A stretch of 64,000 nt of DNA from Nitrospirota bacterium (GCA_039908505.1 JAMOAZ010000007.1:22317-86316); one strand, 5' to 3'; counted from the stretch's first letter, positions 3,531-56,629 are shown. Notes: generated by a model not told the origin, from the sequence alone. A program made the numbers and translations.

Positions 3531-3550
3531 AGGGCGCAGAGGCTTGTCTA

Positions 3551-4963
3551 ATGACGGATAAGATAACAGATAAGAAGAAACAGTGGCTTGTCGTATTCAG
3601 TTTGTCTATTGGAATCCTGATGGCCTCGCTTGATTTTTCCATAGTAAACGTATCTCTGCCAACCATTACTGGGTATTTTGGGACAAACACAGATACGGCC
3701 TCATGGGTGGTGCTTTCATATTTTCTGGCAAATATGGGCTTGACCCTTGTTGTTGGAAGGGTTGGGGATATCTGGGGTTTTAAGAAAATATATGTCTGGG
3801 GCATGGCGCTTTTTACGCTGTCATCGTTTATGTGCGGCGCATCGCAGTCAATAGAGATGCTTATAATCTCGCGGGTTATGCAGGGGATTGGAGGTGCAAT
3901 GTTTTCCACCCTGGTCTTAGCCATGATAAGCGCCTATCTGCCCGCTGAGTTTCGCGGTAAGTATATTGGTATAGTAAGCATGTGCAAGTCTCTTGGTGTG
4001 ATGATGGGGCCGGGGATAGGCGCCCTGATTACCTCATATGTCAGTTGGAAGTGGGTGTTCTTTGTCAATATCCCATTTGGGATAGCGGCCTTTGCCAGTG
4101 CCGCAGTGCTGCTTAGGCAGGATACCGCTAAAAAAGATCATGCAAAATTCAGGATTGGAGAGGTCCTGCTGCTCATTGTTTCTCTGACTATATTTTTCTA
4201 TATAACGTCCTCGGGCGAGACACTTGGGTGGCTGTCACCGTTAGTGCTGACGCTGTTGGTGGCCTCAGGGTTTGGAATCGTGATGTTTGTCCGCACGGAG
4301 TTAAAGATTGACTCACCGCTGATAAACCTCTCGTTACTGAAGATTTCAGGCTTGTCGATGGGGTTGATTGCAAATACGCTCAGGTTTGTAATCATCTTTG
4401 GGATGAATTTTCTGCTACCGTTTTACTTTGAGATAGGGCTTAATATTTCATTAAAAGTCTCTGGCCTGCTTCTTATGATACCCTCTGGCCTGATGGTCGT
4501 GATGAGTCCTTTTACAGGGAGGTTGTCAGACAGGGTCGGCGCACAAATGCTGTGTGTCTTTGGCATGGCCTTAAGTGTTGTGTGTTTTATAATGCTGACA
4601 TTGGGCGGTTCTCAGGCCGCGCTTTGGTATGTTGTAATGTCAATGGTCGTATTGGGGCTGAGTTCAGGATTTTTTTCTTCTCCAAACGATGTACTCATAA
4701 TGAGCCATGCCCCAAAGGGGATGGAAGGCTTGGTGTCCAGTCTGAACATTATGGCCAACAGGGTTGGCGGGACAATAGGCATTATTGTTTTCCAGAATGT
4801 TGTGTCACTGTCTATGCCCCAGGGCATGGACATAAGGCCTGGTGTACCACAGGCAGTCCTTCACAGGGCATTTGAGAATTCCTTCATTGCCGCTGCCGTA
4901 CTCTCGGCAATTGTAATCGTGTTTTCATTCCTTGCAAAGGACGCAAAAAAGAATGCCGTATGA
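3551..4963 (+). CDS. MFS drug:H+ antiporter, DHA2 (EmrB/QacA) family
   Basis: 14-TM hydrophobic pattern; motifs LDFSIVNVSLPTI, GRVGDIWGFKK, GPGIGALI, WKWVFFVNIPFG. Confidence 0.93.
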   Translation: MTDKITDKKKQWLVVFSLSIGILMASLDFSIVNVSLPTITGYFGTNTDTASWVVLSYFLANMGLTLVVGRVGDIWGFKKIYVWGMALFTLSSFMCGASQSIEMLIISRVMQGIGGAMFSTLVLAMISAYLPAEFRGKYIGIVSMCKSLGVMMGPGIGALITSYVSWKWVFFVNIPFGIAAFASAAVLLRQDTAKKDHAKFRIGEVLLLIVSLTIFFYITSSGETLGWLSPLVLTLLVASGFGIVMFVRTELKIDSPLINLSLLKISGLSMGLIANTLRFVIIFGMNFLLPFYFEIGLNISLKVSGLLLMIPSGLMVVMSPFTGRLSDRVGAQMLCVFGMALSVVCFIMLTLGGSQAALWYVVMSMVVLGLSSGFFSSPNDVLIMSHAPKGMEGLVSSLNIMANRVGGTIGIIVFQNVVSLSMPQGMDIRPGVPQAVLHRAFENSFIAAAVLSAIVIVFSFLAKDAKKNAV

Positions 4964-22055: not shown

Positions 22056-23282
22056 ATGGCATTAGTCAAACCACACGGCAAAAATAAGACATTGATGCCC
22101 TTGAAGCTGGAGGGTGCAGCATTAGAAGCGGAAAAGGCGAAGGCAAAGGGCCTGACACAAGTGCGCATGTCATCAAGAGAGACGGGCGACCTGATAATGT
22201 TAGGCATAGGCGGTTTTACTCCGCTTGAAGGTTTTATGGGGCATGACGACTGGAAAGGCGTGTGCGATAGCTATAAGTTGGCAGACGGCGTATTCTGGCC
22301 GATACCAATAACCCTGTCAACGAGCAAAGGTCAGGCAGACAGCTTAAAGGCCAATGAGGAAGTAGCCCTGGTCGATGAGTCAACCGGCGAGATAATGGGC
22401 ACGATGGTAATAAAAGAGAAATACACGATAGACAAGGTCCACGAGTGTAAGCAGGTATATAAGACAGACGACAAGGCGCACCCCGGTGTAGCAATGGTCA
22501 TGGCACAGGGCGATGTAAACCTTGCAGGCCCGGTAAAGGTATTAAGCGAAGGCTCGTTCCCGACGGAATTTGCTGGTGTATATCTGACACCAAAAGAGAC
22601 CAGAAAGATATTTGAGGACAAGGGCTGGTCAAGAGTCGCGGCGTTTCAGACAAGGAACCCGATGCACCGCTCGCACGAATACCTTGCAAAGCTCTCACTG
22701 GAGATTTGCGACGGCCTGATGATTCATTCACTGCTTGGTAAGCTGAAACCCGGCGACATCCCTGCCGATGTAAGAGGCAACTGTATCGATACACTAATAA
22801 AGTACTATTTTGTTAAGGACACATGCGTACAGGCAGGCTACCCGCTGGATATGAGATATGCAGGACCCAGAGAGGCGCTCTTACATGCGCTCTTCAGGCA
22901 GAACTATGGTTGCAGCGACCTGATAGTAGGAAGAGACCACGCAGGCGTTGGCGACTACTACGGCCCGTTTGATGCACATCACATATTTGATGAGATACCG
23001 GCAGACGCCCTTGAGACAAAGGCATTAAAGATAGACATGACGTTTTACTGTATGAAGTGCGACGGTATGGCGTCAAACAGGACATGCCCTCACGACAAGG
23101 CAGACAGGTTGAACCTCAGCGGCACTGCCCTGAGAAAAATGCTTTCGGAAAATACAGATGTACCCGATCACTTCAGCCGTCCAGAGGTATTGGCGATACT
23201 CCAGAAGTACTATGCCGGCCTTACAGAAAAGGTTGAGATAACGCTGCACAAGCACTCAACTGGAGAGAGCGCGAAGAAATAG
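22056..23282 (+). CDS. sat: Dissimilatory sulfate adenylyltransferase
   Basis: [55 protein letters not shown]. Confidence 0.97.
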
Positions 23283-23288
23283 CTTAAG

Positions 23289-23314
23289 AAGGGGGGTAAC
23301 CGTACCCCCTTTTT
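23289..23314 (+). terminator. Intrinsic terminator after sat
   Basis: GGGGGTA-ACCG-TACCCCC hairpin followed by TTTTT. Confidence 0.8.
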
Positions 23315-23434
23315 CATTTATTATAACGATAAGGAAAAAGGAGGTGAAGGTCGCAGCTTACACCCTAGTAGATGGCGACATAAATTAAATCTTGGCTTTT
23401 TAAGCCAAAATATTTTGCAAGGAGGTATATTTAT

Positions 23435-23860
23435 ATGCCGAGTTTTGTAATGACAGAAAAGTGTGACGGCTGTAAAGGGCAGGAAAGAACAGCCTGTATG
23501 TACATCTGCCCAAACAATCTTATGAAGCTTGACCGCGACAGGATGAAGGCGTTCAACCAGGAAACTGAGCAGTGCTGGGAATGCTACAACTGTGTAAAGA
23601 TTTGCCCGCAGCAGGCGATCGAGGTCAGAGGATATGCGGACTTTATTCCACTTGGCGGCAACGTAATACCAATGAGGGGTTCGGATTCCATAATGTGGAC
23701 TGTTAAGTTCAGAAGCGGTGCATTAAAAAGGTTTAAGTTCCCGATCAGGACAACGGCAGAGGGTTCGATAGATCCGTACAAAGGTAAGCCGGAAGCGGAC
23801 TTTGCGAATTTAAAGAAGCCCGGATTTTTTAACATGACAACGGTAAAAACCTTAAAATAA
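23435..23860 (+). CDS. aprB: Adenylylsulfate reductase beta subunit
   Basis: MPSFV..KCDGCKG..TACMYICP, CWECYNCVKICPQQAIEVRGYADF, IMWTVKFR. Confidence 0.97.
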   Translation: MPSFVMTEKCDGCKGQERTACMYICPNNLMKLDRDRMKAFNQETEQCWECYNCVKICPQQAIEVRGYADFIPLGGNVIPMRGSDSIMWTVKFRSGALKRFKFPIRTTAEGSIDPYKGKPEADFANLKKPGFFNMTTVKTLK

Positions 23861-23878
23861 AACTTAGGAGGCTATACG

Positions 23879-25852
23879 ATGGAATTAGAAACATGTACAT
23901 TTGCGTACTGTCAAAGACCTGAGATGATAGAGGTCGAGACCGACATTCTGTTAATCGGCGGCGGTATGGCTAACTGCGGCGCGGCATACGAGGCGGTGCG
24001 TTGGGCAACACCAAAGGGATTAAAGGTAACGATGGTAGATAAGGCAGCAGCCGACAGAAGCGGCGCGGTAGCGATGGGCCTTTCTGCAATCAACACATAT
24101 TTGGGCGAGAACGACCCTGTCGACTATGTAAAATACGTTAGAGGCGACCTGATGGGCATCATCAGAGAGGACCTCGTATATGACTGCGGCAGACACGTTG
24201 ACGATTCAGTGCACCTCTTTGAAGAATGGGGCCTCCCTGTATGGAAGAGGGCAGAAGACGGTCACACATTAGACGGCGCACAGCCCGCAAAGAAGCTTAC
24301 CGAAGGCGGCAAGCCTGTAAGAAGCGGTAAGTGGCAGATAATGATAAACGGCGAGTCCTACAAGGTAATCGTAGCCGAAGCAGCGAAGAAGGCGCTTGAG
24401 ATAAACAGGGCAGCAACCGGCCAGGAAATCAATCTCTATGAGAGAGTGTTTATTGTAAAGCTCCTCCTCGACGCTAACGAGCCGAACAGAGTAGCGGCAG
24501 CGGTAGGATTCAGCGTAAGAGAGAACAAGGCATACATGTTTAAGGCAAAGTGTATGTTATTGGCATGCGGCGGTGCAGTTAACGTATTCAGGCCGCGTTC
24601 CGTTGCTGAAGGACAGGGCAGGGCATGGTACCCGGTATGGAACGCTGGAACGACATACGCATTAGCGGCTCAGGTAGGCGCAGAGCTGGTGCTTATGGAA
24701 AACAGGTTCGTACCTGCAAGATTTAAAGATGGTTACGGCCCGGTTGGTGCGTGGTTCTTGTTCTTCAAGGCAAAGGCAACCAACTCCCTCGGCGAAGACT
24801 ATTGCGTAACTCACTTTGAAAGCACAAAGGCATTATATGGCAAATATTGCAGCGACCCGCACAAGCTCGGCACTGCTATCAGAAATCACATGATGATGAA
24901 CGACATGAAGGCCGGTAAAGGCCCGATTCTCATGAACACCCATCTGGCAATGGCAGAGCTCGGAAAGACCATGGACGCCAAGCAGATAAAGCACCTTGAG
25001 GCAGAGGCATGGGAAGACTTCCTCGATATGTGTATTGGACAGGCCGGAGTGTGGGCAGGAAACAACATCGAGCCGGATAAGGCCCCGTCTGAAATCATGC
25101 CGACAGAGCCGTATCTCCTCGGTTCACATGCAGGCTGCGCCGGTATATGGGTAAGCGGTCCTGACGATTTAGGCGCCCCGAAAGAATGGTGCTGGGGATA
25201 TAACAGAATGACCACCGTAAAGGGTCTCTTCACAGCCGGCGACGGCGTCGGAGCATCCGGACACAAGTTCTCCTCAGGCTCACACGCTGAAGGAAGACAA
25301 GCCGCTAAGTCAATGGTAGCATTCTGTCTCGATAACGCCTCATACAAGCCAGCAGTAGCTAAGTCAACCGAAGAGCTCATCGGAGAGCTTTATCTCCCGT
25401 TTGAGATATTCGAAAAATACAAGAACTACAGCACAGACACAAACACAAACCCATACTACATCAGACCAAAAATGCTTCAGGCAAGACTGCAGAAGATAAT
25501 GGACGAGTATGTAGCTGGCGTATCGACATACTACATGACCAGTAAGACTCTGCTTGACGCAGGCTTAAAGCATCTGATGCTCCTCAAAGAAGACTCGATT
25601 AGAATGGGTGCAGCAGACCTCCACGAGCTGATGAGATGCTGGGAAAACTATCACAGAATCTGGACAGGTGAGGCCCATGCAAGGCACATACTCTTTAGGG
25701 AAGACTCCAGATACCCGGGCTACTACTACAGGGGAGACTTCAACCTCATAGACGACCAGAACTGGAAATGCTTTACAATATCGAAGTTCAACCTCCAGAC
25801 CGGTCAATGGGAGATGTCCAAGAGAGATTACGTACAGTTGATTCCTGACTAA
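23879..25852 (+). CDS. aprA: Adenylylsulfate reductase alpha subunit
   Basis: DRSGAVAMGLSAINTY, GKWQIMINGESYK, GRAWYPVWNAG, RFKDGYGPVGAWF, GHKFSSGSHAEGR. Confidence 0.98.
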   Translation: MELETCTFAYCQRPEMIEVETDILLIGGGMANCGAAYEAVRWATPKGLKVTMVDKAAADRSGAVAMGLSAINTYLGENDPVDYVKYVRGDLMGIIREDLVYDCGRHVDDSVHLFEEWGLPVWKRAEDGHTLDGAQPAKKLTEGGKPVRSGKWQIMINGESYKVIVAEAAKKALEINRAATGQEINLYERVFIVKLLLDANEPNRVAAAVGFSVRENKAYMFKAKCMLLACGGAVNVFRPRSVAEGQGRAWYPVWNAGTTYALAAQVGAELVLMENRFVPARFKDGYGPVGAWFLFFKAKATNSLGEDYCVTHFESTKALYGKYCSDPHKLGTAIRNHMMMNDMKAGKGPILMNTHLAMAELGKTMDAKQIKHLEAEAWEDFLDMCIGQAGVWAGNNIEPDKAPSEIMPTEPYLLGSHAGCAGIWVSGPDDLGAPKEWCWGYNRMTTVKGLFTAGDGVGASGHKFSSGSHAEGRQAAKSMVAFCLDNASYKPAVAKSTEELIGELYLPFEIFEKYKNYSTDTNTNPYYIRPKMLQARLQKIMDEYVAGVSTYYMTSKTLLDAGLKHLMLLKEDSIRMGAADLHELMRCWENYHRIWTGEAHARHILFREDSRYPGYYYRGDFNLIDDQNWKCFTISKFNLQTGQWEMSKRDYVQLIPD

Positions 25853-25884
25853 GCGGTGAAATAGCAAGACGAAGTACACAGGAG

Positions 25885-25921
25885 GAAGGGGGGACGGCGT
25901 TCCCCCTTCTGACCTTTTTTT
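25885..25921 (+). terminator. Terminator/attenuator between aprA and qmoA
   Basis: GAAGGGGGGA-CGGCG-TTCCCCCTTC hairpin with a T7 run shortly after. Confidence 0.7.
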
Positions 25922-25955
25922 GGAGTCCGTAGCTTAAAAGAGAGTGGAGGATTTT

Positions 25956-27224
25956 ATGTCAGACGAGAAGGGTTCGGCCATCGTAGTAATAGGAGGTGGG
26001 ATAAGCGGGCTAACCACGGCGATAGAAGCGGCAGAAGCAGGCCAACGTTCGGTAATAGTGGAGAGAAATCCGTATTTGGGTGGAAGGGTAGCGCAGTTAA
26101 ACCGGTATTTCCCCAAGTTATGTCCGCCATACTGTGGATTAGAGGTAAATTTTAAGAGGATAAAGCAGAATCCCAAGATATCTGTTTATACGTCGGCAGA
26201 AATAGAAAGTGTTCAGGGAAGCGAAGGCAATTTTAAGGTTAAGATAAAAATCAATCCAAGATATGTAAATACCAAATGTACGGCATGTGGTGACTGTGTA
26301 AAGGTATGTCCTATAGAGAGAAGCAATAGTTTTAATTTTGGAATCGATAAGACAAAGGCGATATATCTGCCCCATGAGTTATCCTATCCAATGAGGTTTG
26401 TAATAGATGCCAGCCCTGGTGTATGTCCTGGAAAGTCATGTTCAAAATGCGTATCGGTTTGTAAGTATAATGCAATCGACCTTGATATGAAGGCAGAGAC
26501 AGTTGAGATAAATGCGTCAAGCGTTGTGTATGCAACAGGCTGGAGTCCGTATGATGCAGCGAAGATGGATAATCTTGGCTTTGGAAAGGTGAAAAACGTA
26601 GTAACCAATATGATGATGGAGCGCATGGCAGCGCCTAATGGCCCGACGAAAGGAAAAATTCTGAGGCCCTCGGACAACAAGCAGGTAAAAACGGTGGCGT
26701 TTGTGCAGTGTGCTGGCTCAAGAGACGAGAATCATCTGGCGCATTGTTCATCGGTGTGCTGCATGGCATCCCTAAAACAGGCTACGTATGTTAGGGAGAG
26801 CGACCCTGACACAAAGGCCTTTATATACTATATAGATTTGAGAGCGCCGGGGAGGTATGAAGACTTTTTGAAAAAGATTCAGGCCGACGCTAGCGTAATG
26901 ATGATAAAAGGTAAGGTAGCAAAGATAGAGGAAGACGCCGAGACTTTAGACCCCATCGTAACAGTGGAAGACATAACAGGTGGCAAAAAGATCACACAGA
27001 AAGTTGATATGGTTGTACTGGCAACGGGCATGGAGCCATCCTTGAAGACGGCAAATGTCAGCACAAACGTAAAACTGGACGAAAACGGCTTCGTCGATGC
27101 CGATGCACAAGCGGCAGGCATCTACGCTTCTGGGGTTGCCAAAAGGCCAAACGACGTTACAACGTCACTACAGGACGCCACTAGCGCGGCCTTGAAGGGC
27201 ATTCAATCCGCGGTGAGGAGGTAA
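25956..27224 (+). CDS. qmoA: QmoA (HdrA-like flavoprotein)
   Basis: IGGGISG FAD motif, YFPKLCPPYCGLE, FVQCAGSRDENHL..CS.VCC; start set at ATG 25956 after GGAGGA; follows aprA. Confidence 0.93.
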   Translation: MSDEKGSAIVVIGGGISGLTTAIEAAEAGQRSVIVERNPYLGGRVAQLNRYFPKLCPPYCGLEVNFKRIKQNPKISVYTSAEIESVQGSEGNFKVKIKINPRYVNTKCTACGDCVKVCPIERSNSFNFGIDKTKAIYLPHELSYPMRFVIDASPGVCPGKSCSKCVSVCKYNAIDLDMKAETVEINASSVVYATGWSPYDAAKMDNLGFGKVKNVVTNMMMERMAAPNGPTKGKILRPSDNKQVKTVAFVQCAGSRDENHLAHCSSVCCMASLKQATYVRESDPDTKAFIYYIDLRAPGRYEDFLKKIQADASVMMIKGKVAKIEEDAETLDPIVTVEDITGGKKITQKVDMVVLATGMEPSLKTANVSTNVKLDENGFVDADAQAAGIYASGVAKRPNDVTTSLQDATSAALKGIQSAVRR

Positions 27225-27227
27225 ACG

Positions 27228-29450
27228 ATGGGATTAGGTGTTTACATATGTACAGACTGTGGTATAGGTGAGTCGTTAAACATAGAAGCCCTTCAAAAGA
27301 TTGGAGGCAAAAAAGGCACTTGCAAGACACATCCGTTTCTGTGCAGCAAGGAAGGCGTAGACCTTATAAAGAACGACATAAACAATGAAGGCGTAAATAA
27401 GATAGTCATAGCGGCGTGCAGCCAGCGCGTCAACACGGACATGTTTGACTTCGACCCACTCCTGTATATAACGGAGAGGGTAAATCTGCGTGAGCATGTG
27501 GTATGGATGCAGCCCCCGAACGACCCCAAGACTCAGGCAATGGCTGAAGACTATGTGAATATGGGTATAGTACGTGCAAATAAGTCAGAGCCGCCTGTTC
27601 CGAAGACAACAGACGTAACACGGGTAGTGCTGATTATTGGCGGTGGAGTCACGGGGCTGACGGCTGCCCTTGAGATTGAGAAGGCTGGCTACAAATCAGT
27701 GGTGGTGGAAAAATCAGGGGCGCTTGGCGGCTGGTCAAAAAAGAGTTTTAAGACATATCCGGCAAAGGCCCCCTATGACAAACTCCTTGTCCCTGCAATC
27801 GACACGAAGATTAAGGCGGTCAGCTCAAGTCAAAACATCACGGTACATCTGGACAGCGCAATAACCTCGATAGAGGGCGAGCCTGGCATGTACGATGTAG
27901 AAATAGACAAAAAGGGCGCTAAGGAGACATTTAAGGCGGGTGCCGTAATCCTTGCAACCGGCTGGAAACCCTATGACGCAAATAATCTCGTACAATACGG
28001 CTATGGCAGATTTAAAAATGTCATAACGAATGTTGAGATGGAAGACCTTGCATCAAAAGGAAAGATAACGAGGCCCTCAGACGGCAAGACGGCAAAGAAT
28101 GTGCTGTTTGTCCAGTGTGCCGGACAGAGAGATGAAAATCACGTCCCATATTGCTCATCAGTTTGCTGCAATGTCTCCCTGAAGCAGGCAAAATATGTGA
28201 GAGAGGCCAATCCTGATGCGGGCGCCTTTATCATCTATAAGGATATGCGGGCAACCGGCGTATATGAGAACTTTTACAAGGCGATGCAAAATGATGAAGG
28301 CATATTCCTTGCCAAAGGTGAGGTAAAGGGGATAGAGGAAGAGGCAGATGGCAGCCTGATAGTCATCGTCGATAATCAGCTCCTCGGCAAGGAGATGAAA
28401 ATAAGGGTTGACGTTGTGGTATTGGCTACTGGAATGGTTTCTTCGATGCTGCCCGAAGGAAAGGCCGTCAACGACCTGACGAAAGAGTATATAGGTGAAA
28501 TGGTAAAAAAGAAGACGCAGGACGGTGAGATCGAAGAGCTTATGCCGATACCCCATATAATGAATCTGAAATACCGGCAGGGGCCTGAGATCCCTCACTT
28601 AAAGTATGGCTTTCCAGATTCCCACTTTATATGTTTCCCGTATGAGACCAGAAGGACGGGCATCTATGCTGCCGGTGCAGTGAGAAGTCCGATGGATTCG
28701 CACCAGTCGTCCGTTGATGCTGCCGGTGCCGCGCTAAAGGCCATACAGTGTATAGAGTTGACTGCACAGGGTAAGGCAGTGCATCCCAGAGCAGGGGACA
28801 TGTCGTTTCCTGAGTTCAGGCTTGAGAGTTGCACTCAGTGCCGCCGCTGTACGGTTGAGTGTCCGTTTGGTGTGCTTGATGAGGATGAAAAGGGAACGCC
28901 GAGAGAGCATCCTTACCGCTGCCGCCGTTGTGGAACCTGTATGGGTGCGTGTCCGCAGAGGATAATCTCCTTCAGCAACTACAGTGTGGATATGGTATCA
29001 TCTATAATGAAATCTGTTGATGTACCATCGGAGGGTGACGAACCGTTTATCATTGCCCTGATATGTGAAAACGATGCCTATCCTGCGTTAGACATGGCGG
29101 GGTTGAATCGGGTACGTTTAAATCCGAACTACAGGTTTGTATCTCTGAGGTGTCTTGGCGGGACGAATCTTGTGTGGATAACCGACGCGCTTTCAAAGGG
29201 TGTGGATGGAGTGCTTTTGATGGGCTGCAAGTACGGTGATGACTACCAGTGTCACTTTGTAAAGGGCAGTCAGGTAGCAAGCGAGCGTCTGAGCAAGGTG
29301 CAGGAGACTTTGGGCAGGCTGATGCTTGAGTCTGAGCGTGTTCATCAGATACAGCTTCAGATAAACGAGTGGGATACGCTTCCGAAGATAATGGAAGAGT
29401 TTTCAGAGAAACTAAAAGGATTTGGACCGAATCCATACAAGGGATTCTAA
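27228..29450 (+). CDS. qmoB: QmoB (HdrA-like + 2x[4Fe-4S] + MvhD domain)
   Basis: FVQCAGQRD, FICFPYETRRTGIYAAG, CTQCRRCTVECPFG, CRRCGTCMGACP, CENDAYPALD, GCKYGDDYQCHF. Confidence 0.95.
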   Translation: MGLGVYICTDCGIGESLNIEALQKIGGKKGTCKTHPFLCSKEGVDLIKNDINNEGVNKIVIAACSQRVNTDMFDFDPLLYITERVNLREHVVWMQPPNDPKTQAMAEDYVNMGIVRANKSEPPVPKTTDVTRVVLIIGGGVTGLTAALEIEKAGYKSVVVEKSGALGGWSKKSFKTYPAKAPYDKLLVPAIDTKIKAVSSSQNITVHLDSAITSIEGEPGMYDVEIDKKGAKETFKAGAVILATGWKPYDANNLVQYGYGRFKNVITNVEMEDLASKGKITRPSDGKTAKNVLFVQCAGQRDENHVPYCSSVCCNVSLKQAKYVREANPDAGAFIIYKDMRATGVYENFYKAMQNDEGIFLAKGEVKGIEEEADGSLIVIVDNQLLGKEMKIRVDVVVLATGMVSSMLPEGKAVNDLTKEYIGEMVKKKTQDGEIEELMPIPHIMNLKYRQGPEIPHLKYGFPDSHFICFPYETRRTGIYAAGAVRSPMDSHQSSVDAAGAALKAIQCIELTAQGKAVHPRAGDMSFPEFRLESCTQCRRCTVECPFGVLDEDEKGTPREHPYRCRRCGTCMGACPQRIISFSNYSVDMVSSIMKSVDVPSEGDEPFIIALICENDAYPALDMAGLNRVRLNPNYRFVSLRCLGGTNLVWITDALSKGVDGVLLMGCKYGDDYQCHFVKGSQVASERLSKVQETLGRLMLESERVHQIQLQINEWDTLPKIMEEFSEKLKGFGPNPYKGF

Positions 29451-29470
29451 AATAACAGGGAGGTATGCAC

Positions 29471-30640
29471 ATGGGTGATGCAGTGTTCACACCTGACATT
29501 GGGTTTGTTCGGGGCTTAAAGGAGGGCGGCGCCGACACTATGAAGCAGTGTTATCAGTGCGCGACGTGCTCTACGGTATGCGACCTGACACCGGCTGACA
29601 ACCCGTTTCCAAGAAAAGAGATGATAATGGCCCAGTGGGGGTTAAAGGAAGAGCTGTCGGCAGACCCGGACATCTGGCTTTGCCACAACTGTAACGACTG
29701 CTCAAAGTACTGTCCCCGCGGTGCAAGACCGGGTGATGTCTTATCGACATTGAGAAAGGCCGTAATAGCCGAGAACGCCTTCCCGAGGTTTATGGGCACG
29801 ATAGTGGGAAATGCAAAGCTGCTCTTAGTGGCGTTGTTGATTCCAGTGGCGCTGTTTCTTGCCTTGTTAAATGCCACCGGGCACTTAAACATACCGGCTG
29901 GCGATGTGGTCTTCAACAAATTTTTCCCGATTCCACTTGTCGATGCGATATTTGTAACGACGGCGATGTGTGTAGTGTTTGTGTTTGCTATAAGCGTGAG
30001 CAGGTTTTGGGGCAAACTCAATGTAAATCCATATAAGCTGATGGCACATAGTATGTTAATACCAAGTTTAATAGAGACCCTGAAGGAGATTGTATTTCAC
30101 AAGAAGTTTCAGAAATGCGGCGCTAATGCAGACAGGACGTGGACGCACAGGCTGATTGTAGCAGGGTTCATAGGTCTGTTCATACAGACAAACTGGGCGG
30201 TATTTAACTTGTATGTGCTGAAGTGGGAAACGCCGTTTCTGAAGGACGACCCAAATATGATGATGATTCTGGGGTCACAGGCAGCGGTGATGATGTACTA
30301 TGCGGTCTACAAGATATTCGGCAATACGAGTGCCCTGCTGTTGTTAATAGGGTCACTGATGCTGTTTGCCAATCGAATGAAGGACAAGGGTGTGAACAGC
30401 GTATCATCGTCTTTTGACTGGGTATTTGCGGTGATGGTGTTTTTGGTATGTATAACGGGGTTGCTGTCAGAGTTTTGCAGGTTTGCGAACAATGCACAGG
30501 TGGCCTATCCTATGTACTTTATTCATCTGGTATGCGTGTTTTACATAATAGCGTACCTGCCGTACTCGAAATTGGCGCACATGGTATATAGGACGACTGC
30601 GATTGTGTACGCGAAAATGGCAAATCGGGACGTAATGTAA
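29471..30640 (+). CDS. qmoC: QmoC (HdrC-like Fe-S domain + HdrE-like membrane cytochrome b)
   Basis: CYQCATCSTVC, WLCHNCNDCSKYCPRGARPGD, TM helices, YFIHLV, LPYSKLAHMVYR; ATG 29471 fits SD spacing better than 29465. Confidence 0.95.
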   Translation: MGDAVFTPDIGFVRGLKEGGADTMKQCYQCATCSTVCDLTPADNPFPRKEMIMAQWGLKEELSADPDIWLCHNCNDCSKYCPRGARPGDVLSTLRKAVIAENAFPRFMGTIVGNAKLLLVALLIPVALFLALLNATGHLNIPAGDVVFNKFFPIPLVDAIFVTTAMCVVFVFAISVSRFWGKLNVNPYKLMAHSMLIPSLIETLKEIVFHKKFQKCGANADRTWTHRLIVAGFIGLFIQTNWAVFNLYVLKWETPFLKDDPNMMMILGSQAAVMMYYAVYKIFGNTSALLLLIGSLMLFANRMKDKGVNSVSSSFDWVFAVMVFLVCITGLLSEFCRFANNAQVAYPMYFIHLVCVFYIIAYLPYSKLAHMVYRTTAIVYAKMANRDVM

Positions 30641-47480: not shown

Positions 47481-48758
47481 GTGAAAAGGGTGGCTGTAAC
47501 AAGAAACATACATAGAAGGCTGATAACTCGTCTGCTTCTGGGCTGGGTTGTCTTGTCCATAGTACTTGGAGCGGTTGTGTATTTCATCAAGATAGCGGAG
47601 ATTGACGATCGTGTTACTGACCTTGCAATATCCGAATCCCTATTAATAATAAAAGACAAGCGGTATTTTTCCACACACCTGTCCGAAGCAGATTATAACT
47701 TATTGCGTCAAAATCTCAGGCAGCATATTGAAGACGGCAATTTCATTGTCCTCGAACTCTATACCTCAGAACATAAGAAACTCTTCGAGGTCTCCTCTGA
47801 AGACAAATCTGCAGTAGAGGCGCACGATAAATATATCGAACCGAAAGAAAAGCCTGTTCACTTTGCTGATAAACTCACCTATGTAAGGTTTTTCATACAC
47901 GGCCGTATCTACTTACAGTTTGTTGTGCCGCTATTTGACAGCAATAAAAAGAAATACGGCTATTTAGAGGGTATTTACCGTACAGACAACGAGGCAATGA
48001 GGGATATTAAAAATATTCTCATAGGCTCTTTACTCTTAGTAGTTGTGACGGTTCTTGTAACAGTGGCCATCTTTTATCCAATAATTATGTCGATGAACAA
48101 GGATTTGATAAAACTCACCGTTGACCTGTCAATCTCAAACATCGGGATGCTTGAGGCGTTGGGCAGCGCCATTGCCAAAAGGGACAGCGACACAAACAGC
48201 CACAACTACAGGGTTACTATTTATGCCGTCACGCTTGGAGCTGCGTTGGGCTTAAAAGATGATGAGATGCGAAGCCTAATTAAGGGCTCATTTCTCCACG
48301 ATATAGGGAAAATCGCCATATCTGACAATGTTTTACTAAAACCTAGCAAGCTCACTAAAGATGAGTTTGAGCATATGAAAAACCACACCATTCACGGCCT
48401 TGATATAGTAGGAAGATACGCATGGCTCAGAGAAGCGATAGATGTAGTGGTATACCATCACGAGAAATATGACGGAAGCGGCTATTCAGGACTTAAAGGG
48501 GAAGACATCCCGTTTAACGCAAGGGTCTTTGCGATAGCCGACGTATTTGACGCCCTAACGTCTAAACGTCCATATAAAGAACCATACTCTTATGAAAAGG
48601 CCATTGGGATACTAAAAGAAAACTCAGGGAAACACTTCGACGCAGGGCTGTTGGATGTCTTCATAGACCTGTCTATTGAATTGTTCGAAAAGATGGGCAA
48701 TGCAGATGACGAAATCCTTGAGAAAACCCTGGCTGAGCTGATACGTAAGTATTTCTAA
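47481..48758 (+). CDS. Membrane-bound HD-GYP domain protein (c-di-GMP phosphodiesterase-like)
   Basis: Two TMs flanking a periplasmic domain; HNYRV, LHDIGK, HHEKYDGSGY, IADVFDALTSKRPYK. Confidence 0.9.
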   Translation: MKRVAVTRNIHRRLITRLLLGWVVLSIVLGAVVYFIKIAEIDDRVTDLAISESLLIIKDKRYFSTHLSEADYNLLRQNLRQHIEDGNFIVLELYTSEHKKLFEVSSEDKSAVEAHDKYIEPKEKPVHFADKLTYVRFFIHGRIYLQFVVPLFDSNKKKYGYLEGIYRTDNEAMRDIKNILIGSLLLVVVTVLVTVAIFYPIIMSMNKDLIKLTVDLSISNIGMLEALGSAIAKRDSDTNSHNYRVTIYAVTLGAALGLKDDEMRSLIKGSFLHDIGKIAISDNVLLKPSKLTKDEFEHMKNHTIHGLDIVGRYAWLREAIDVVVYHHEKYDGSGYSGLKGEDIPFNARVFAIADVFDALTSKRPYKEPYSYEKAIGILKENSGKHFDAGLLDVFIDLSIELFEKMGNADDEILEKTLAELIRKYF

Positions 48759-50777: not shown

Positions 50778-52535
50778 GTGCTTCATTCTAAAATTAACGG
50801 GAAAAGGAGAATCTGCGTGTACACAACATTGACCAGAGTTTTTATCATCATTGCTGTCTTGTTCGGGTTGTTGACTTATGGGTCTGCAGATAATACTACC
50901 CTTTCAATAGCGCATATCAATGACACGCACAGTCATCTTGAACCATCCAACGTATCACTGACATATAACTCGAGCCCTTTTGTTGTGAGTGCCGGAGGAT
51001 TCCCCCTGATTACCAGTGCCATTTCTGCCCTCAGAGAATCCCGCCCTAACCTACTGTTGCTTCATGCAGGTGATGTGTTTACTGGAACTGTATTCTTTTC
51101 GAAATATCAGGGACTTGCCGACGTAGATTTCCTTAACGCGATGCACCTTGATGCCATGACAACGGGCAATCACGAATTCGACAAAGGGCCTTCAGTCCTT
51201 GCCGCATTTATCAAAAAGGCGACCTTCCCCGTAGTATCTGCAAACCTTGAAATATCTATGGAATCTCCGCTTTACAGCCTGATTAAACCCTATACAATCT
51301 TAGAGAAAAACGGCCGCAGGATAGGCATTGTCGGCCTTACAACCTCTGAGACGCCGTCCATATCCAAGCCAGGCAATTTGGTTAAGTTCAAAGATGTTGT
51401 AAAATCAGCCGAGGCAGCCGTCTCTGACCTAACCAGCCAGGACGTGAATATTATAATTATACTGTCACACATAGGCTATGAAAATGACCTTGAGCTTTCC
51501 CGCGCAGTACCAGGGGTGGATGTTATCGTAGGCGGGCATTCACATTCACTGTTGGGGGATGATACGCTGAGTCAGATTGGCCTTCAACCGGTTGGGCCAT
51601 ACCCGACAGAAGTACGTGGCACAGATAACTCTACCGTATTGATTGTCACGGCATGGGAGTTTGGAAAGATACTTGGCCATATGGATATCGATTTTGACGC
51701 TGACGGCAGGATTGTCTCATATCGGGGGAATCAGGCTGTTATCCTTCCGGAGGAACCGGAAAACAGGACGCCTGAGCTGGCAGAGTTTTATCAATCGACG
51801 GCAAACGGGAAGATTACCTCAAACCCGCGTTTTCAGTTAGTTAAGGCAGACCCCTCAGCAGCACTCAAACTCGATAAGTATAGCGCTCCTATTAAAGGCT
51901 TCATGAGCGGAACGGTTGCTTATGCCGAGGATACCCTTAAACGTGCGAACAATCAGGGGCCGGGGCCGATTATTGCCGACAGTATGCTCCAAAAAACTAC
52001 TGACTTAGGGGCTGATATTGCAATTATGAACTCCGGAGGTGTGCGAATTGACATGCCAAAGGGGAATATCTCAATAGCCGACGCCTACTCCCTCATGCCC
52101 TTTAACAATACGATATATGTCCTGAAGCTCAAAGGTCATCAGATAAAAGATGCCATAGAGTCAACCATAGAGTTTCAGATAAATAAAATGAAAAAACCTC
52201 CATTTGTATACGCCTCCGGCCTTAGATTTACTCTGGACATGTCAAAACCAGCAGGGGAGCGCGTCAAAGCCATGGAGGTAAAGGAACAGGGGACACAGAC
52301 ATATGTGCCAGTAAAAATGAATAGTTTTTACAAGATAGCCGTAAGCGAATACATTGCCAAAGGGGGCGACAATTTTATGTCCATACAGGGGACTGAGGCA
52401 GTTTCCCCGTTGAAGGCGGCAAGTTCTGCTGTTGATACAGGATTTGTAGACTCAGAGGTATTTATTGAATATATCAAGTCACAAAAAAGGCTGAAAAATC
52501 CAACCGAACAGAGGATTCGTATGATTAATAGATAA
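50778..52535 (+). CDS. Exported 5'-nucleotidase/UDP-sugar hydrolase
   Basis: HINDTHSH, LHAGDVFTG, GNHEFD, LSHIG, VGGHSH, NSGGVR, MPFNN, GGDNF. Confidence 0.93.
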   Translation: MLHSKINGKRRICVYTTLTRVFIIIAVLFGLLTYGSADNTTLSIAHINDTHSHLEPSNVSLTYNSSPFVVSAGGFPLITSAISALRESRPNLLLLHAGDVFTGTVFFSKYQGLADVDFLNAMHLDAMTTGNHEFDKGPSVLAAFIKKATFPVVSANLEISMESPLYSLIKPYTILEKNGRRIGIVGLTTSETPSISKPGNLVKFKDVVKSAEAAVSDLTSQDVNIIIILSHIGYENDLELSRAVPGVDVIVGGHSHSLLGDDTLSQIGLQPVGPYPTEVRGTDNSTVLIVTAWEFGKILGHMDIDFDADGRIVSYRGNQAVILPEEPENRTPELAEFYQSTANGKITSNPRFQLVKADPSAALKLDKYSAPIKGFMSGTVAYAEDTLKRANNQGPGPIIADSMLQKTTDLGADIAIMNSGGVRIDMPKGNISIADAYSLMPFNNTIYVLKLKGHQIKDAIESTIEFQINKMKKPPFVYASGLRFTLDMSKPAGERVKAMEVKEQGTQTYVPVKMNSFYKIAVSEYIAKGGDNFMSIQGTEAVSPLKAASSAVDTGFVDSEVFIEYIKSQKRLKNPTEQRIRMINR

Positions 52536-52634: not shown

Positions 52635-53396
52635 ATGAAAGGGAAAGCAGCAGTAATCGCAGCCATATTTGTTGCATTTATGGCTGTAGTAATGGGCGAG
52701 AGTTATGGCGCATCAGAGGCCGATGTCGGGCAAAAGGTATATGACAGAAGATGCGCATTCTGTCACGGGCGAAGTGGTAACGGCGATGGCACAGCGGAGT
52801 TTGTCTATAAGAAAGACAAGGGGAAAATCTGGAAGTTGTATCCGCGTGATTTTACACAGGGTGTTTACAGGTTCAGGTCAACGCAAACCGGAAGCCTGCC
52901 TACTGACGAAGACCTCATGCGCATATTGACTGTAGGCATTCCACGCTCAAGTATGCCAGCAACAAATGACCTGTCAGACATGGAGAAAAAAGCGGTAATA
53001 GCATACCTCAAGACCTTGTCAAGGAGATGGAAAGACGAACAGCCCGGAGTATCAATCTCTGTAGCTGCAAAGCCAGATTGGGTTGGCACGCCGGAGTCAG
53101 TGGAAAAAGGCGCACAGGTGTGGAAGGAGATGAAGTGCTGGGAGTGCCATGGTGAAAGGGGCAAGGGTGACGGTCCAAAATCAATGGACATTAAAGATGA
53201 CCAAAAAAGGCCAATTCTTCCGTTTGACTTCACAATTGGCGCTCTAAAAAGAGGCACTACGGACAAAGATATCTATCTGGCGTACACAACCGGTCTTGAC
53301 GGTACGGGAATGCCTTCATATGAAGACTCACTCGATGAGGAGAAGCGCTGGCATCTGGTGTCTTATACATTAAAACTAATGGGAAAGATAAAATAA
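52635..53396 (+). CDS. Exported diheme c-type cytochrome
   Basis: Signal peptide; CAFCH and CWECH; PRDFT, MP axial-ligand motifs. Confidence 0.92.
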   Translation: MKGKAAVIAAIFVAFMAVVMGESYGASEADVGQKVYDRRCAFCHGRSGNGDGTAEFVYKKDKGKIWKLYPRDFTQGVYRFRSTQTGSLPTDEDLMRILTVGIPRSSMPATNDLSDMEKKAVIAYLKTLSRRWKDEQPGVSISVAAKPDWVGTPESVEKGAQVWKEMKCWECHGERGKGDGPKSMDIKDDQKRPILPFDFTIGALKRGTTDKDIYLAYTTGLDGTGMPSYEDSLDEEKRWHLVSYTLKLMGKIK

Positions 53397-53414
53397 GGAC
53401 GGGAGGTGATAGTC

Positions 53415-53588
53415 ATGGCAGAAGAACCGGCAGGATTCATACAGAAGTTACTTGATAATCCCATAGGACTGTTGATACTTTCAAACGCAGTATTACTGGT
53501 TGTCTACTTTTTATGGGGATTATATAAGATAGAGACAATAGGTCCAATTCCTACTGCGCTGAAAGAAATAATATTAGGAGGTAAGTAA
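53415..53588 (+). CDS. Small single-TM subunit of the heme-copper complex (subunit IIa/III-like)
   Basis: One hydrophobic helix; GGGAGG SD; stop abuts the subunit II start. Confidence 0.7.
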   Translation: MAEEPAGFIQKLLDNPIGLLILSNAVLLVVYFLWGLYKIETIGPIPTALKEIILGGK

Positions 53589-53589
53589 A

Positions 53590-54120
53590 ATGGCACTAAC
53601 CGCACCAGAAAAAGGATGGTGGCATAAAAAGGTATCGAGCGACGAAAAGACGTGGGTAATATTTGCAGCAATCGTTGCGCTGTCTCTCTTTATGTTAATG
53701 GTTGCATGGCATTTACTGGGTAAACAAAACCCATCGTATATCGTCTATTCAACATCACCCGATGAGTTCTATAAACTAGCCCAGGCAAACTGGGAAAAAT
53801 ACAAAGTTGGCGAAGAGTCCGGTATTCCGGTTGTGAAGCCGCCTGCAGACAGCGATGTGTTTATTCTTGCTTCTACATGGAAATGGGAGCCGGTCTTAGT
53901 ACTCAAAAAAGGCGCGAACTACAGATTTCATGTATCTTCAATGGATCTCCTGCACGGCTTTTCCATACAACCTGTGAATATGAATTTTGCTATTCACCCG
54001 GGGTATGACTATGTTCTAACGTTCAAACCGACATCCAGCGGCGATTTCAGGTTAGTCTGCAATGAGTACTGCGGGCCTGGGCATCATGCAATGATTGGAA
54101 AAATAAAAGTTGAAGACTAA
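53590..54120 (+). CDS. Heme-copper superfamily subunit II, B-family-type, CuA-containing
   Basis: Single TM; DLLHGF and CNEYCGPGHHAM CuA ligands. Confidence 0.93.
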   Translation: MALTAPEKGWWHKKVSSDEKTWVIFAAIVALSLFMLMVAWHLLGKQNPSYIVYSTSPDEFYKLAQANWEKYKVGEESGIPVVKPPADSDVFILASTWKWEPVLVLKKGANYRFHVSSMDLLHGFSIQPVNMNFAIHPGYDYVLTFKPTSSGDFRLVCNEYCGPGHHAMIGKIKVED

Positions 54121-54138
54121 GATGAAGGAGGATTTAAG

Positions 54139-55818
54139 ATGTCTTTTTTAAAATGCGATATCACTGGGTTTAACGTAGACAAACGCGTGTTACCCTTGAT
54201 AAAAGCAAACGCGGTGGTTTCTGTGGTTTCCCTTCTTTTAGCCGTACTAACCGCCATGCTGGTGCTTTTTACAAGGTGGCAGGTCGTTCATCTGCTACCG
54301 GTTGACTGGTATTACAGGATACTTACGCTGCATGGATTAGTGGCGCTTGTGGTGTGGATAGTGTTTTGGGAGATGGCTGGGCTTTATTTTGGCTCTACAA
54401 TAGTGTTGAACGCACGGCAGGTTGCACCCGGGGTGGGATGGCTTGCCTTTGTGCTCATGGTAGTGGGGACGGCACTGGTTTCCTTTGCGGTTTTAACCGG
54501 CAGGGCAGACGTGCTTTTCACCTCATACGTGCCGCTTAAGGCAAATCCAATTCATTATCTTGGTATAATACTCTTTGCAGTTGGCGCCCTAATTGTTTGT
54601 GGACTGTTTTTTGCAAATATTATCACAGCCAAAAAGGAAAAGACCTATGGTGACGGGCCGCTTCCCCTGTTCAGTTTTGGTTTGCTTACGGCAGCGATTT
54701 TGGCTGTCGGTACGCTATTGTCAGGAGCCGCTATTTATGTGCCAGTATTTCTCTGGTCATTAGGTTTAATCCAGTCTGTGGACAGTATTGTTTACAGGGT
54801 GGTATTTTGGGGCTTCGGGCATTCCGCCCAGCAGGTTAATGTTGCTGCGATGATATCGATATGGTATCTTGGGGCATTTCTCACAGTCGGCGGCACGTCT
54901 ATAAACGAGAGGGTAAGCAGGATGGCGTTCTTGTTTTATATGATTGGTATAAATCTCGCATCGGCTCACCATCTGCTTGTTGACCCGATTCCATCACCGG
55001 CATGGAAGATAGTAAACACCAGTTATTTTATGTATCTGGCCGTCCTTGCCTCTATGATACACGCCTTTGCAGTACCATCGGCGATTGAGGTTGCTCAGAG
55101 GAGGAGGGGGTATACAAAGGGACTGTTTGACTGGCTTAAGAACTGTCCATGGGGAAATCCAGCCTTTGTTGCGGTCTTTTTGGCCGTAGTTACCTTTGGA
55201 TTCATCGGAGGTATTACCGGTGTCATCAACGGTATGGAGCAGACCAACATGGTAGTTCATAATACGCTGGCGATTCCAGGTCATTTCAAAGGCACAGTAG
55301 TAAGCGGAACGACGCTTACGTTTATGGGTGCTACGTACTATCTGATTCCGCTTATATTCAGGAAAAAGATATCGTTCTTTGGTGTGGCCAAGGCGGCACC
55401 GTGGTTATTTGCAATCGGCATCGTGCTGCTTTCTGCCGGACTCTCTACGCTTGGTTATCTTGGAGTACCGAGGAGACATTGGGATACAACATTTTCCGGT
55501 GGGCCGTTTACCTACACATATCCTCCGATTGCGGACTTTTTATGGGTAGTAGCGGTAATTGGCGGCGTGATAGCATTCTTGGGTGCTATGGCATGGATTT
55601 TAGTAGTGGTTATTTCTGTATTTTTCGGAAAGCCGGTTACAGGGCCGGTAGACATGCAGCTGCCACTGGCTTCACCGCTTCCACCTGAGACTAAGTCACA
55701 TGAGTCAAAATTCGTTGCCCCGGGGACATTCGCGCTCACAATTATATTTATGTTAGCGTTTTTGATCTTTGCAACTATAAACTGGGGATGGTTAAGCATG
55801 ATGTGGGAGGTCAAGTAG
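54139..55818 (+). CDS. Heme-copper superfamily subunit I, B-family-derived; probable eNOR-type nitric oxide reductase
   Basis: H65; H228 in FWGFGHSAQQ with Gln232 at the Tyr cross-link position; H277-H278; H382-F-K384. Confidence 0.8.
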   Translation: MSFLKCDITGFNVDKRVLPLIKANAVVSVVSLLLAVLTAMLVLFTRWQVVHLLPVDWYYRILTLHGLVALVVWIVFWEMAGLYFGSTIVLNARQVAPGVGWLAFVLMVVGTALVSFAVLTGRADVLFTSYVPLKANPIHYLGIILFAVGALIVCGLFFANIITAKKEKTYGDGPLPLFSFGLLTAAILAVGTLLSGAAIYVPVFLWSLGLIQSVDSIVYRVVFWGFGHSAQQVNVAAMISIWYLGAFLTVGGTSINERVSRMAFLFYMIGINLASAHHLLVDPIPSPAWKIVNTSYFMYLAVLASMIHAFAVPSAIEVAQRRRGYTKGLFDWLKNCPWGNPAFVAVFLAVVTFGFIGGITGVINGMEQTNMVVHNTLAIPGHFKGTVVSGTTLTFMGATYYLIPLIFRKKISFFGVAKAAPWLFAIGIVLLSAGLSTLGYLGVPRRHWDTTFSGGPFTYTYPPIADFLWVVAVIGGVIAFLGAMAWILVVVISVFFGKPVTGPVDMQLPLASPLPPETKSHESKFVAPGTFALTIIFMLAFLIFATINWGWLSMMWEVK

Positions 55819-55822
55819 CCAT

Positions 55823-56629
55823 TTGAAGAGATTTCTCCTGACAGTTTACGTGGCTTTTACTGTCCTTACTGGCAGCGTCTGTGGCTATGGAGAGAAACTC
55901 ACATCGCCTAACGAGAAAGAGACGCTGGGCAAAGCAGTACCCAACGTAAGACTGTTTGACTCCTACGGCAAAGAGCGCACCATGATGGAAATAGTAGGGG
56001 GCAAACCCCTTATTATATCCATTATTTACACAAGGTGTGAGACGGCGTGCATTGTCATCACCGACGCTCTTACGTCAGTTGTTGAGAAGATGGGAGATAT
56101 TGGAAAGAACTATAATGTCCTTAGTCTCTCGTTTGACCCTTCGGACACACCAGAGATGCTGGCAAAGTTCAGGACGACATGGGGGCTTAACGCAACCGGA
56201 TGGATAGTTGCAAGCGGTCAGGACAGTGAATTGAAAAGGCTGCTGAGTGCAATTGGATTTTCGTATAAACTTGACAAGGGGACGGGTGAGTTCATTCATC
56301 CCAACCTCCTTGTCATACTTACCCCTGATGGCAGGATATCGAGATATATCTACGGCGTGAACTATGATGACAAGAATCTGAAATTGACTCTGTTAGACGC
56401 CAAAAGGGGCACTTCGACATTGAGCGTTATGGAAGGGGTGCTACTCTGGTGCTATCAATATGACCCTGTGACTGGTGCATATACCTTTGATTGGCCATTT
56501 TTACTTGAGCTCATAAGCGGGATTGCCTTTTTTATGTCCCTGTTATTTTTTTTCTTTGCCAAAAAAGTAGTCAGCTGTTTACGTAAATTTGCTGGTTCTA
56601 TGATTGAACAGAAAAGTCTGTCAGAATAG
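55823..56629 (+). CDS. SCO-family copper chaperone
   Basis: YTRCETAC (CxxxC), SLSFDPSDTP, FIHP, C-terminal TM. Confidence 0.92.
   Translation: MKRFLLTVYVAFTVLTGSVCGYGEKLTSPNEKETLGKAVPNVRLFDSYGKERTMMEIVGGKPLIISIIYTRCETACIVITDALTSVVEKMGDIGKNYNVLSLSFDPSDTPEMLAKFRTTWGLNATGWIVASGQDSELKRLLSAIGFSYKLDKGTGEFIHPNLLVILTPDGRISRYIYGVNYDDKNLKLTLLDAKRGTSTLSVMEGVLLWCYQYDPVTGAYTFDWPFLLELISGIAFFMSLLFFFFAKKVVSCLRKFAGSMIEQKSLSE

Follow-up and report, generated by a model that had tools for sequence, protein, structure and literature searches.

A probable eNOR-type nitric oxide reductase operon in a magnetotactic-type Nitrospirota bacterium

We have analysed a 64,000-nt stretch of DNA, referred to here as the window, from a Nitrospirota bacterium (GCA_039908505.1 JAMOAZ010000007.1:22317-86316). 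At positions 52635-56629 it carries an operon of five plus-strand genes, which includes subunits I and II of an enzyme of the heme-copper superfamily. With a probability of roughly 0.8, this operon encodes a nitric oxide (NO) reductase of the eNOR type, derived from B-family oxygen reductases and predicted to carry out the reaction 2 NO to N2O rather than the reduction of O2 to water; the organism can thus probably make nitrous oxide (N2O) from NO. The assignment, first proposed in a sequence-only reading of the window, is supported by four independent lines of evidence: a glutamine marker in the active site, membership in a clade with 98-99.5% bootstrap support, accessory genes resembling those of the B-family (CuA-bearing subunit II, a small IIa-like subunit and SCO1), and the embedding of homologous operons among nir and nos genes.

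Active site and metal ligands

Residue equivalences were derived from phmmer (HMMER) and MAFFT alignments to the ba3 oxidase of Thermus thermophilus. Its subunit I is the closest solved structure for the catalytic subunit of the window (phmmer, E about 1e-47), and its subunit II is the best Protein Data Bank (PDB) match for the corresponding protein (E=1.8e-16), with the metal ligands and E15 aligned. In subunit I, residues H65, H228, Q232, H277/H278, H382 and R445/R446 correspond to ba3 H72, H233, Y237, H282/H283, H384 and R449/R450. The low-spin heme ligands are H65 and K384, the high-spin heme ligand is H382, and H228, H277 and H278 are the ligands of the non-heme metal. The CuA ligand set of subunit II is complete, comprising H122 and the stretch C157-N-E-Y-C161-G-P-G-H165-H-A-M168, and the CuA subunit recognised in the sequence-only reading is thereby confirmed.

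The diagnostic difference lies in helix VI. B-family O2 reductases have a His-Tyr cross-link in this helix (motif GHPxVY), which is absent from subunit I: the motif reads GHSAQQ, with Q232 (codon CAG) at the position of the cross-link Tyr, as had been noticed from the sequence, and Q231 immediately before it. This position is occupied by Tyr in O2 reductases, Glu in cNOR and qNOR, Asn in sNOR and Gln in eNOR (PMC8756737, Table A4; after Hemp & Gennis 2008).

Gln232 is found throughout the clade described below (33 of 33 members) and in none of 28 Tyr-bearing relatives, and is therefore not a chance substitution. Further changes specific to the clade, grouped near the active site, are I271, S275 and A276 in helix VII and N293, M298 and A301 in helix VIII. 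Apart from the missing Tyr, nothing speaks for a decaying or inactive oxidase remnant in which Tyr was recently exchanged for Gln by a loss-of-function mutation. Such an origin is effectively refuted by conservation, as Gln232 and 190 further positions are invariant among 12 homologues with identities down to 56%, all five reading frames are intact and tightly spaced, four of them with a strong ribosome-binding site, and the same operon is kept across at least nine phyla.

The K-type proton path of ba3 is kept, with S305 in place of S309, Y243 in place of Y248, and E19 of subunit II in place of E15, the ba3 residue at the entrance of the path; T312 of ba3 is replaced by an invariant H308. A second unusual residue is Lys384, found where alignments place ba3 H386, so that the motif reads 'GHFK' instead of 'GHFH'. 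PGHFK is present in 75 of the 120 closest homologues, and His/Lys ligation of the low-spin heme has been stated for some eNORs (Murali 2024, PMC11214002).

An AlphaFold2 model of subunit I (pTM 0.82) was compared with solved structures by Foldseek. The ba3 oxidases were the best matches (TM-score about 0.75-0.76), followed by A-family oxidases, and no cNOR or qNOR was found among the top 50.

Two glutamates had been put forward in the sequence-only reading as candidate additional metal ligands. Both residues exist as described, E317 in AIEVAQ and E367 in GMEQ, but conservation and position support a ligand role for neither. Glu is found at the position of E317 in ba3 and in 27 of the 28 Tyr-bearing relatives, so that it is no specific mark of NO reductases; in the model only five residues separate it from the cytoplasmic end of helix VIII (287-322), before an RRR loop and far from the metal. 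E367 lies in the periplasmic-side loop that joins helices IX and X, where confidence in the model is low, and does not define the family: the corresponding residue is Tyr in Thermus, Pro in Thermomicrobium roseum, Leu or Met in haloarchaea and Gln in another homologue (P0121), with Glu invariant only in the subclade of the query and its near neighbours.

Phylogenetic placement

Trees were built from the closest homologues, full-length representatives at 50% identity from a library of 1.8 billion proteins, loci from GTDB genomes and named plasmid-borne genes; the diagnostic columns 231, 232, 296, 367 and 384 were omitted. All Gln-bearing sequences, including the query, formed one clade in 99.5% of 200 bootstraps, and in 98% of 100 bootstraps when Natronomonas was added, with all Tyr-bearing enzymes outside. 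The clade includes Natronomonas pharaonis DSM 2160 (P0548; motif GHGSQQ, 36% identity to the query, E=2e-102), genes on Thermus thermophilus plasmids (44-46%), T. roseum (45%) and Defluviimonas (47%). Natronomonas is named as the genus of the first eNOR description, and a Thermus sequence belongs to the eNOR set of the same source (PMC8756737).

The nearest neighbours of the Gln-bearing clade are Tyr-bearing sequences with a QY motif from Hodarchaeales and Thermoproteota, followed by ba3-like oxidases with VY. The clade and the QY group were united with 95.5% bootstrap support. This grouping fits the reported clustering of 'K-family' oxygen reductases with eNOR (preprint 10.1101/592808) and an oxygen reductase ancestry of eNOR, the view taken in PMC11214002; the QY sequences are probably K-family O2 reductases themselves.

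Within the clade, Lys384-bearing sequences from Aquificota, Nitrospirota (including the query) and Bacteroidota are monophyletic with 100% bootstrap support. The eNORs of Thermus plasmids also carry Lys at this position. Because they branch elsewhere, the change from His to Lys may have arisen twice.

Genomic context of related loci

Neighbouring genes were counted over 90 related loci. The operon recurs in at least nine phyla, with a SCO1 homologue after subunit I in 71 loci. At a distance of up to 10 kb, nirS or nirK was found in 19 loci (21 matches, two loci having both), nosZ in five, and heme O synthase in 15, including the closest genome, Candidatus Magnetominusculus sp. LBB02 (L015).

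The copy of Hydrogenobacter thermophilus (69% identity) is located between nosZ-nosL-nosD-nosF-nosY and genes of the nirS-nirJ-nirF-nirE type, nirS being accompanied there by genes for heme d1 biosynthesis. A Bacteroidota contig shows the order Crp-family regulator, small subunit, subunits II and I, UbiA (heme O synthase), SCO, cytochrome b/Fe-S and nirS, and in a Gemmatimonadota contig a gene for a NirK-cytochrome c fusion comes after the operon. Thermus plasmid copies adjoin nirS or a multicopper nitrite reductase-like (nirK) gene together with an Rrf2-family regulator. A matching architecture, with small subunit, subunits II and I, SCO and cytochrome b/Fe-S, has been described for the eNOR operon of Ferrigenium straubiae (10.64898/2026.01.22.701106).

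A second COX1-like gene of 422 aa directly follows subunit I in H. thermophilus (L002, 11668-12936) and in 11 other loci; it occurs in the Aquificaceae loci and in some loci from Bacteroidota, Nitrospirae metagenome-assembled genomes (MAGs) and other sources, and is absent from the window. It may correspond to the 'eNOR scaffold protein' mentioned for Ferrigenium.

Tyr296

All 33 Gln-bearing sequences have Tyr296 in helix VIII, and each of the 28 Tyr-bearing relatives lacks it. It is placed two residues before the position at which A- and B-family oxidases carry a Thr that forms a hydrogen bond with a CuB histidine (bovine T309, ba3 T302; here Met298), and thus near the depth of the active site. 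A Tyr from another helix had been named in the sequence-only reading as evidence that would count against eNOR. The distribution of Tyr296 is the pattern expected of a migrated residue, and the K-type proton path is retained; both would suit a genuine O2 reductase in which the lost Tyr of helix VI is replaced by Tyr296, in the way that the C-family uses helix VII. The position of the C-family cross-link itself, six residues before the HH pair, is Ile271 in subunit I. We consider a replacement by Tyr296 very improbable. Models and alignments have revealed no migrated Tyr capable of a cross-link in these families (Murali 2024, PMC11214002). The purified eNOR of Rhodothermus marinus reduces NO and has no O2 reductase activity (PMC11214002); it very probably has Tyr296 too, because this residue is invariant from haloarchaea to Nitrospirota. 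A family member from Magnetospirillum magnetotacticum is likewise reported to lack oxidase activity (cited in PMC11214002), and homologous operons are located in nir/nos clusters, not in clusters for aerobic respiration. We read Tyr296 as a putative eNOR-specific residue of the active site or of a channel, not as a restored cofactor.

Function of the Lys384 subclade

Another explanation accepts the eNOR family and assigns a diverged function to the Lys384 subclade, namely NO detoxification only, the reduction of another small oxidant, or a redox module formed with the protein encoded by a neighbouring fusion gene (cytochrome b/Fe-S/FlpD, see below). The subclade, monophyletic as described, has its own invariant K384 and E367, and a low-spin heme with His/Lys ligands would differ in redox potential. 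In the window no nir or nos genes are found near the operon, and magnetotactic Nitrospirota are already reported to possess norBC (PMC11344931). The tight link to a cytoplasm-facing Fe-S/FlpD protein is also left unexplained by a simple route from cytochrome c to CuA. We nevertheless regard a diverged function as quite unlikely: the copies most tightly set in nir/nos clusters, those of Aquificaceae and Bacteroidota, belong to this same subclade, the subclade agrees with all other family members in Q231, Q232, the three His and Y296, and the cytochrome b/Fe-S gene is also found in lineages with His/His ligation, such as Gemmatimonadota and Defluviimonas.

Points weighing against the assignment

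Several observations reduce the confidence in an NO-reducing eNOR in this organism. The function of the protein, as of the whole Lys384 subclade, is predicted from sequence, and Tyr296, with its position near the depth of the active site, may take part in catalysis. The trees are neighbour-joining trees of 59-61 sequences, not maximum likelihood trees. Membership in the eNOR family is deduced from marker residue, clade and operon architecture rather than from an alignment with the R. marinus enzyme itself, and identities of subunit I to the retrievable named members are only 36-47%. The R. marinus eNOR did not appear among the top 120 homologues of the query; nor was it seen in the 80 best GTDB loci, among the matches listed, where its absence is uninformative. 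A search seeded with the Defluviimonas protein retrieved only Rhodobacterales-type sequences of at least 80% identity, and WP_015717644.1, the Thermus accession of Schwartz 2022, was not in the clusters of the Thermus and T. roseum proteins.

Neither nir, nos and nor genes nor ctaA and ctaB were found in the window by Pfam searches of 37 open reading frames (ORFs) and by tblastn. The search for ctaA/ctaB and nir genes suggested in the sequence-only reading was thus negative, and the absence of a heme O or A synthase noted there holds (tblastn with three heme O synthase queries, E≤0.01). R. marinus eNOR uses a derivative of heme a and many eNOR operons carry ctaA, which the window does not. Finally, with norBC already present in relatives of the host, the enzyme may be redundant or specialised.

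The cytochrome b/Fe-S/FlpD fusion

A minus-strand gene upstream of the operon encodes a fusion of a cytochrome b of the b6/bc1 N-terminal type (PDB match to cytochrome b6, E=5e-12), two [4Fe-4S] modules and an FlpD/MvhD-like domain. Homologues adjoin the genes for subunits II and I in 77 of the 90 related loci, in many phyla, either divergently upstream or co-directionally downstream. Since they also accompany His/His lineages, the fusion is a trait of the family and not of the subclade. A gene of this type beside eNOR was called 'rather unusual' in the 2026 Ferrigenium preprint (10.64898/2026.01.22.701106); among these 90 loci it is the rule.

The fusion protein is a candidate partner for electron input or coupling. 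It is conceivable, yet in our view unlikely, that eNOR and the fusion protein form one membrane complex, of which the Lys384/Glu367 subclade would be a tuned version. If so, the complex would connect the quinone pool, or Fe-S electron carriers of the cytoplasm, with NO reduction, and could serve reverse electron flow or additional energy conservation. A redox role of eNOR shared by magnetotactic bacteria might also be considered, because the 'cytochrome a1-like' protein purified from Magnetospirillum is an eNOR as well.

In the window a gene for a secreted 5'-nucleotidase separates the fusion gene from the operon. The nucleotidase gene recurs in Ca. Magnetominusculus LBB02 (75% DNA identity) and was not found at the locus in Ca. 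Magnetomonas plexicatena or in other phyla; the divergent gene pair is conserved apart from this, and the gene seems to have been inserted between its two members.

Proposed mechanism

On the periplasmic side, the co-encoded dihaem cytochrome c would deliver electrons to the binuclear CuA centre of subunit II, from which they would continue to the low-spin heme at His65/Lys384; the ligand residues for both centres are present. In the putative catalytic site, a high-spin heme on His382 would face a non-heme metal held by His228, His277 and His278, which from the literature on NO reductases is presumably iron (PMC11214002). The cross-linked Tyr that gives the fourth electron for O2 reduction is missing, and the four-electron reaction would not be completed. 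Gln232 occupies the place where cNOR has an FeB-ligating Glu, so the site appears built for the two-electron reaction with NO. Protons would be taken up from the cytoplasm along the ba3-like K-type path (Ser305, Tyr243, His308 and Glu19 of subunit II); as this path is kept, NO reduction is probably electrogenic. SCO1 would load CuA, and NO would be supplied by a nitrite reductase encoded elsewhere in the genome.

Comparison with known systems

The characterised members of the eNOR family are the R. marinus enzyme and the 'cytochrome a1-like hemoprotein' of M. magnetotacticum (Murali 2024, PMC11214002). The operon in the window resembles the family in the Gln marker, B-family origin, CuA subunit II, K-path with conserved Ser, and SCO1 and cytochrome b/Fe-S genes. 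It shares His/Lys ligation with 'some eNORs' and its clade with the N. pharaonis and Thermus plasmid genes. It differs in having neither ctaA nor heme O synthase, and in an upstream dihaem cytochrome c of its own. The latter precedes subunit II in only five of the 90 loci, all from Nitrospirota: the window, three further loci of the magnetotactic type (L001, L009 and L015) and a groundwater Nitrospirae MAG (L008).

With T. thermophilus ba3 (1EHK/1XME) the enzyme shares the ligands of the high-spin heme and the metal, the CuA subunit II and the arrangement of the small subunit, at about 30% identity. Differences from ba3 to the query are Y237 to Q232, V236 to Q231, H386 to K384, T312 to H308 and T302 to M298, with Y296 gained; ba3 reduces O2, whereas the enzyme of the window is predicted not to. 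The QY sequences of Hodarchaeales (P0123) and Thermoproteota (P0134) are 36-38% identical to the query and have Q231, H308, Y243 and Y267 in common with it. Unlike the query, they keep the cross-link Tyr and His/His ligation, and lack Y296.

The same reaction is predicted as for cNOR and qNOR, and in both cases a polar residue other than Tyr is found one turn after the first metal His (Glu there, Gln here). These enzymes nevertheless belong to another branch of the superfamily, related to the C-family and equipped with a cytochrome c or a fused quinol domain in place of CuA, whereas the best matches of the query are from the B-family and then the A-family; they have no CuA subunit or cytoplasmic proton channel, and their Glu is an FeB ligand (PMC11214002). 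The sNOR and bNOR enzymes are closer in kind, being B-family-derived with CuA-type subunits and without the cross-link Tyr, but have Asn where the query has Gln (PMC8756737, Table A4). No sNOR or bNOR sequences were found among the retrieved relatives.

Operon structure and other genes of the window

The intergenic gaps of the operon are 9, 1, 18 and 4 nt. Ribosome-binding sites of the AGGAGG type precede all starts except that of the SCO1 gene, for which there is only a GGGAGG at a distance of 11 nt. For FNR/Dnr-type boxes (TTGAT-N4-ATCAA, up to two mismatches), 37 matches were counted where 43 would be expected, and the 99 nt that precede the operon contain none; promoter and terminator scans produced matches at consensus level only.

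Table 1 Coordinates of the operon, diagnostic codons and other features in the window
Feature	Position	Strand	Remarks
Dihaem cytochrome c, 253 aa	52635-53396	+	Pfam Cytochrom_C and Cytochrome_CBB3, two matches each
Single-helix membrane protein, 60 aa	53406-53588	+	One predicted transmembrane helix, residues 20-38; no Pfam match
Subunit II, 176 aa	53590-54120	+	One transmembrane helix and cupredoxin domain; Pfam COX2 (21.9 bits, slightly below cut-off), ba3 subunit II match
Catalytic subunit I, 559 aa	54139-55818	+	Heme-copper superfamily; Pfam COX1, E=3e-59
Gln232 codon CAG	54832-54834	+	Site of ba3 cross-link Tyr Y237
Tyr296 codon	55024-55026	+	Helix VIII of subunit I
Lys384 codon AAA	55288-55290	+	Site of ba3 H386, second axial His of the low-spin heme
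SCO1/SenC-type copper chaperone, 268 aa	55823-56629	+	Pfam SCO1-SenC, E=5.5e-12
Cytochrome b/two [4Fe-4S]/FlpD/MvhD-like fusion, 640 aa	48794-50716	-	Pfam Cytochrome_B, Fer4 families, FlpD
Secreted 5'-nucleotidase, NadN/UshA-like	50778-52535		Between fusion gene and operon
HD-domain gene	47481-48758		At the position of heme O synthase in L015
ATP sulfurylase (sat)	22056-23282		Dissimilatory sulfur gene set, 22056-30640
AprA-like flavoprotein	23879-25852		Dissimilatory sulfur gene set
QmoA-like	25944-27224		Dissimilatory sulfur gene set
QmoB-like	27228-29450		Dissimilatory sulfur gene set
QmoC-like	29465-30640		Dissimilatory sulfur gene set
ORF, 829 aa	8231-10720		No Pfam match at E≤1e-6
ORF, 497 aa	38166-39659		No Pfam match at E≤1e-6
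ORF, 579 aa	40747-42486		No Pfam match at E≤1e-6

The dihaem cytochrome c begins with a signal or anchor helix, carries two CxxCH motifs (residues 40 and 168) and is the probable periplasmic electron donor to CuA. Among solved structures it is most similar to chain B of 6H5L (E=3e-51), the cytochrome partner in the HAO-like complex of Kuenenia stuttgartiensis. ORFs of 41-60 aa are found directly 5' of subunit II also in loci of Magnetomonas, Hydrogenobacter, Gemmatimonadota and Bacteroidota, and at the same place in Thermus, Defluviimonas and Thermomicrobium; we infer that the 60-aa protein is the positional counterpart of the small subunit IIa of ba3-type enzymes. The SCO1/SenC protein, with a CETAC motif at residues 72-76, H159 and a C-terminal transmembrane helix, is the probable assembly factor for CuA.

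Subunit I is 93% identical to its homologue in Ca. Magnetominusculus sp. LBB02 and 83% to that in Ca. Magnetomonas plexicatena, and the operon with its neighbours is syntenic with both genomes. The source organism is likely a magnetotactic Nitrospirota bacterium. In favour of the assignment, nap, nar, nirS, norBC and nosZ have been reported from magnetotactic bacteria of this phylum (PMC11344931). At the LBB02 locus, a heme O synthase gene adjoins the cytochrome b/Fe-S gene, and SCO1 is followed by a second dihaem cytochrome c paralogue (features at 3459-4397 and 12727-13428 of L015), both absent from the window.

Implications for annotation and for the biology of magnetotactic Nitrospirota

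Subunit I reaches no NCBIfam cut-off, the top model being CtaD_CoxA with 52 bits against a cut-off of 671, and pipelines therefore default to a generic 'cytochrome c oxidase' name. The mislabelling anticipated from the sequence was indeed encountered: the named homologues are without exception labelled 'cbb3-type' or 'cytochrome c oxidase subunit I', and such entries carry cbb3- or ba3-type oxidase names and the Gene Ontology term 'aerobic respiration'. Both the family and its mislabelling as an oxidase are already published, and the gain is incremental; the locus is an addition, in magnetotactic-type Nitrospirota, to a described and biochemically characterised family. We found no report of eNOR in this group in the literature. 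Specialist attention is best directed to the invariant Tyr296 and to the cytochrome b/Fe-S/FlpD gene as a near-universal neighbour, with the Lys384 subclade as another loose end.

Metabolic reconstructions based on the present names would credit magnetotactic Nitrospirota with an O2 reductase that is probably not theirs, and would overlook an NO-reducing, N2O-producing and probably energy-conserving step. This bears on the niche of the group at the oxic-anoxic interface and on its contribution to N2O. Denitrification and magnetite biomineralisation have been closely linked by experiments in Magnetospirillum MSR-1 and AMB-1 (cited in PMC11344931), and through this link an eNOR in these bacteria would also be relevant to magnetite formation.

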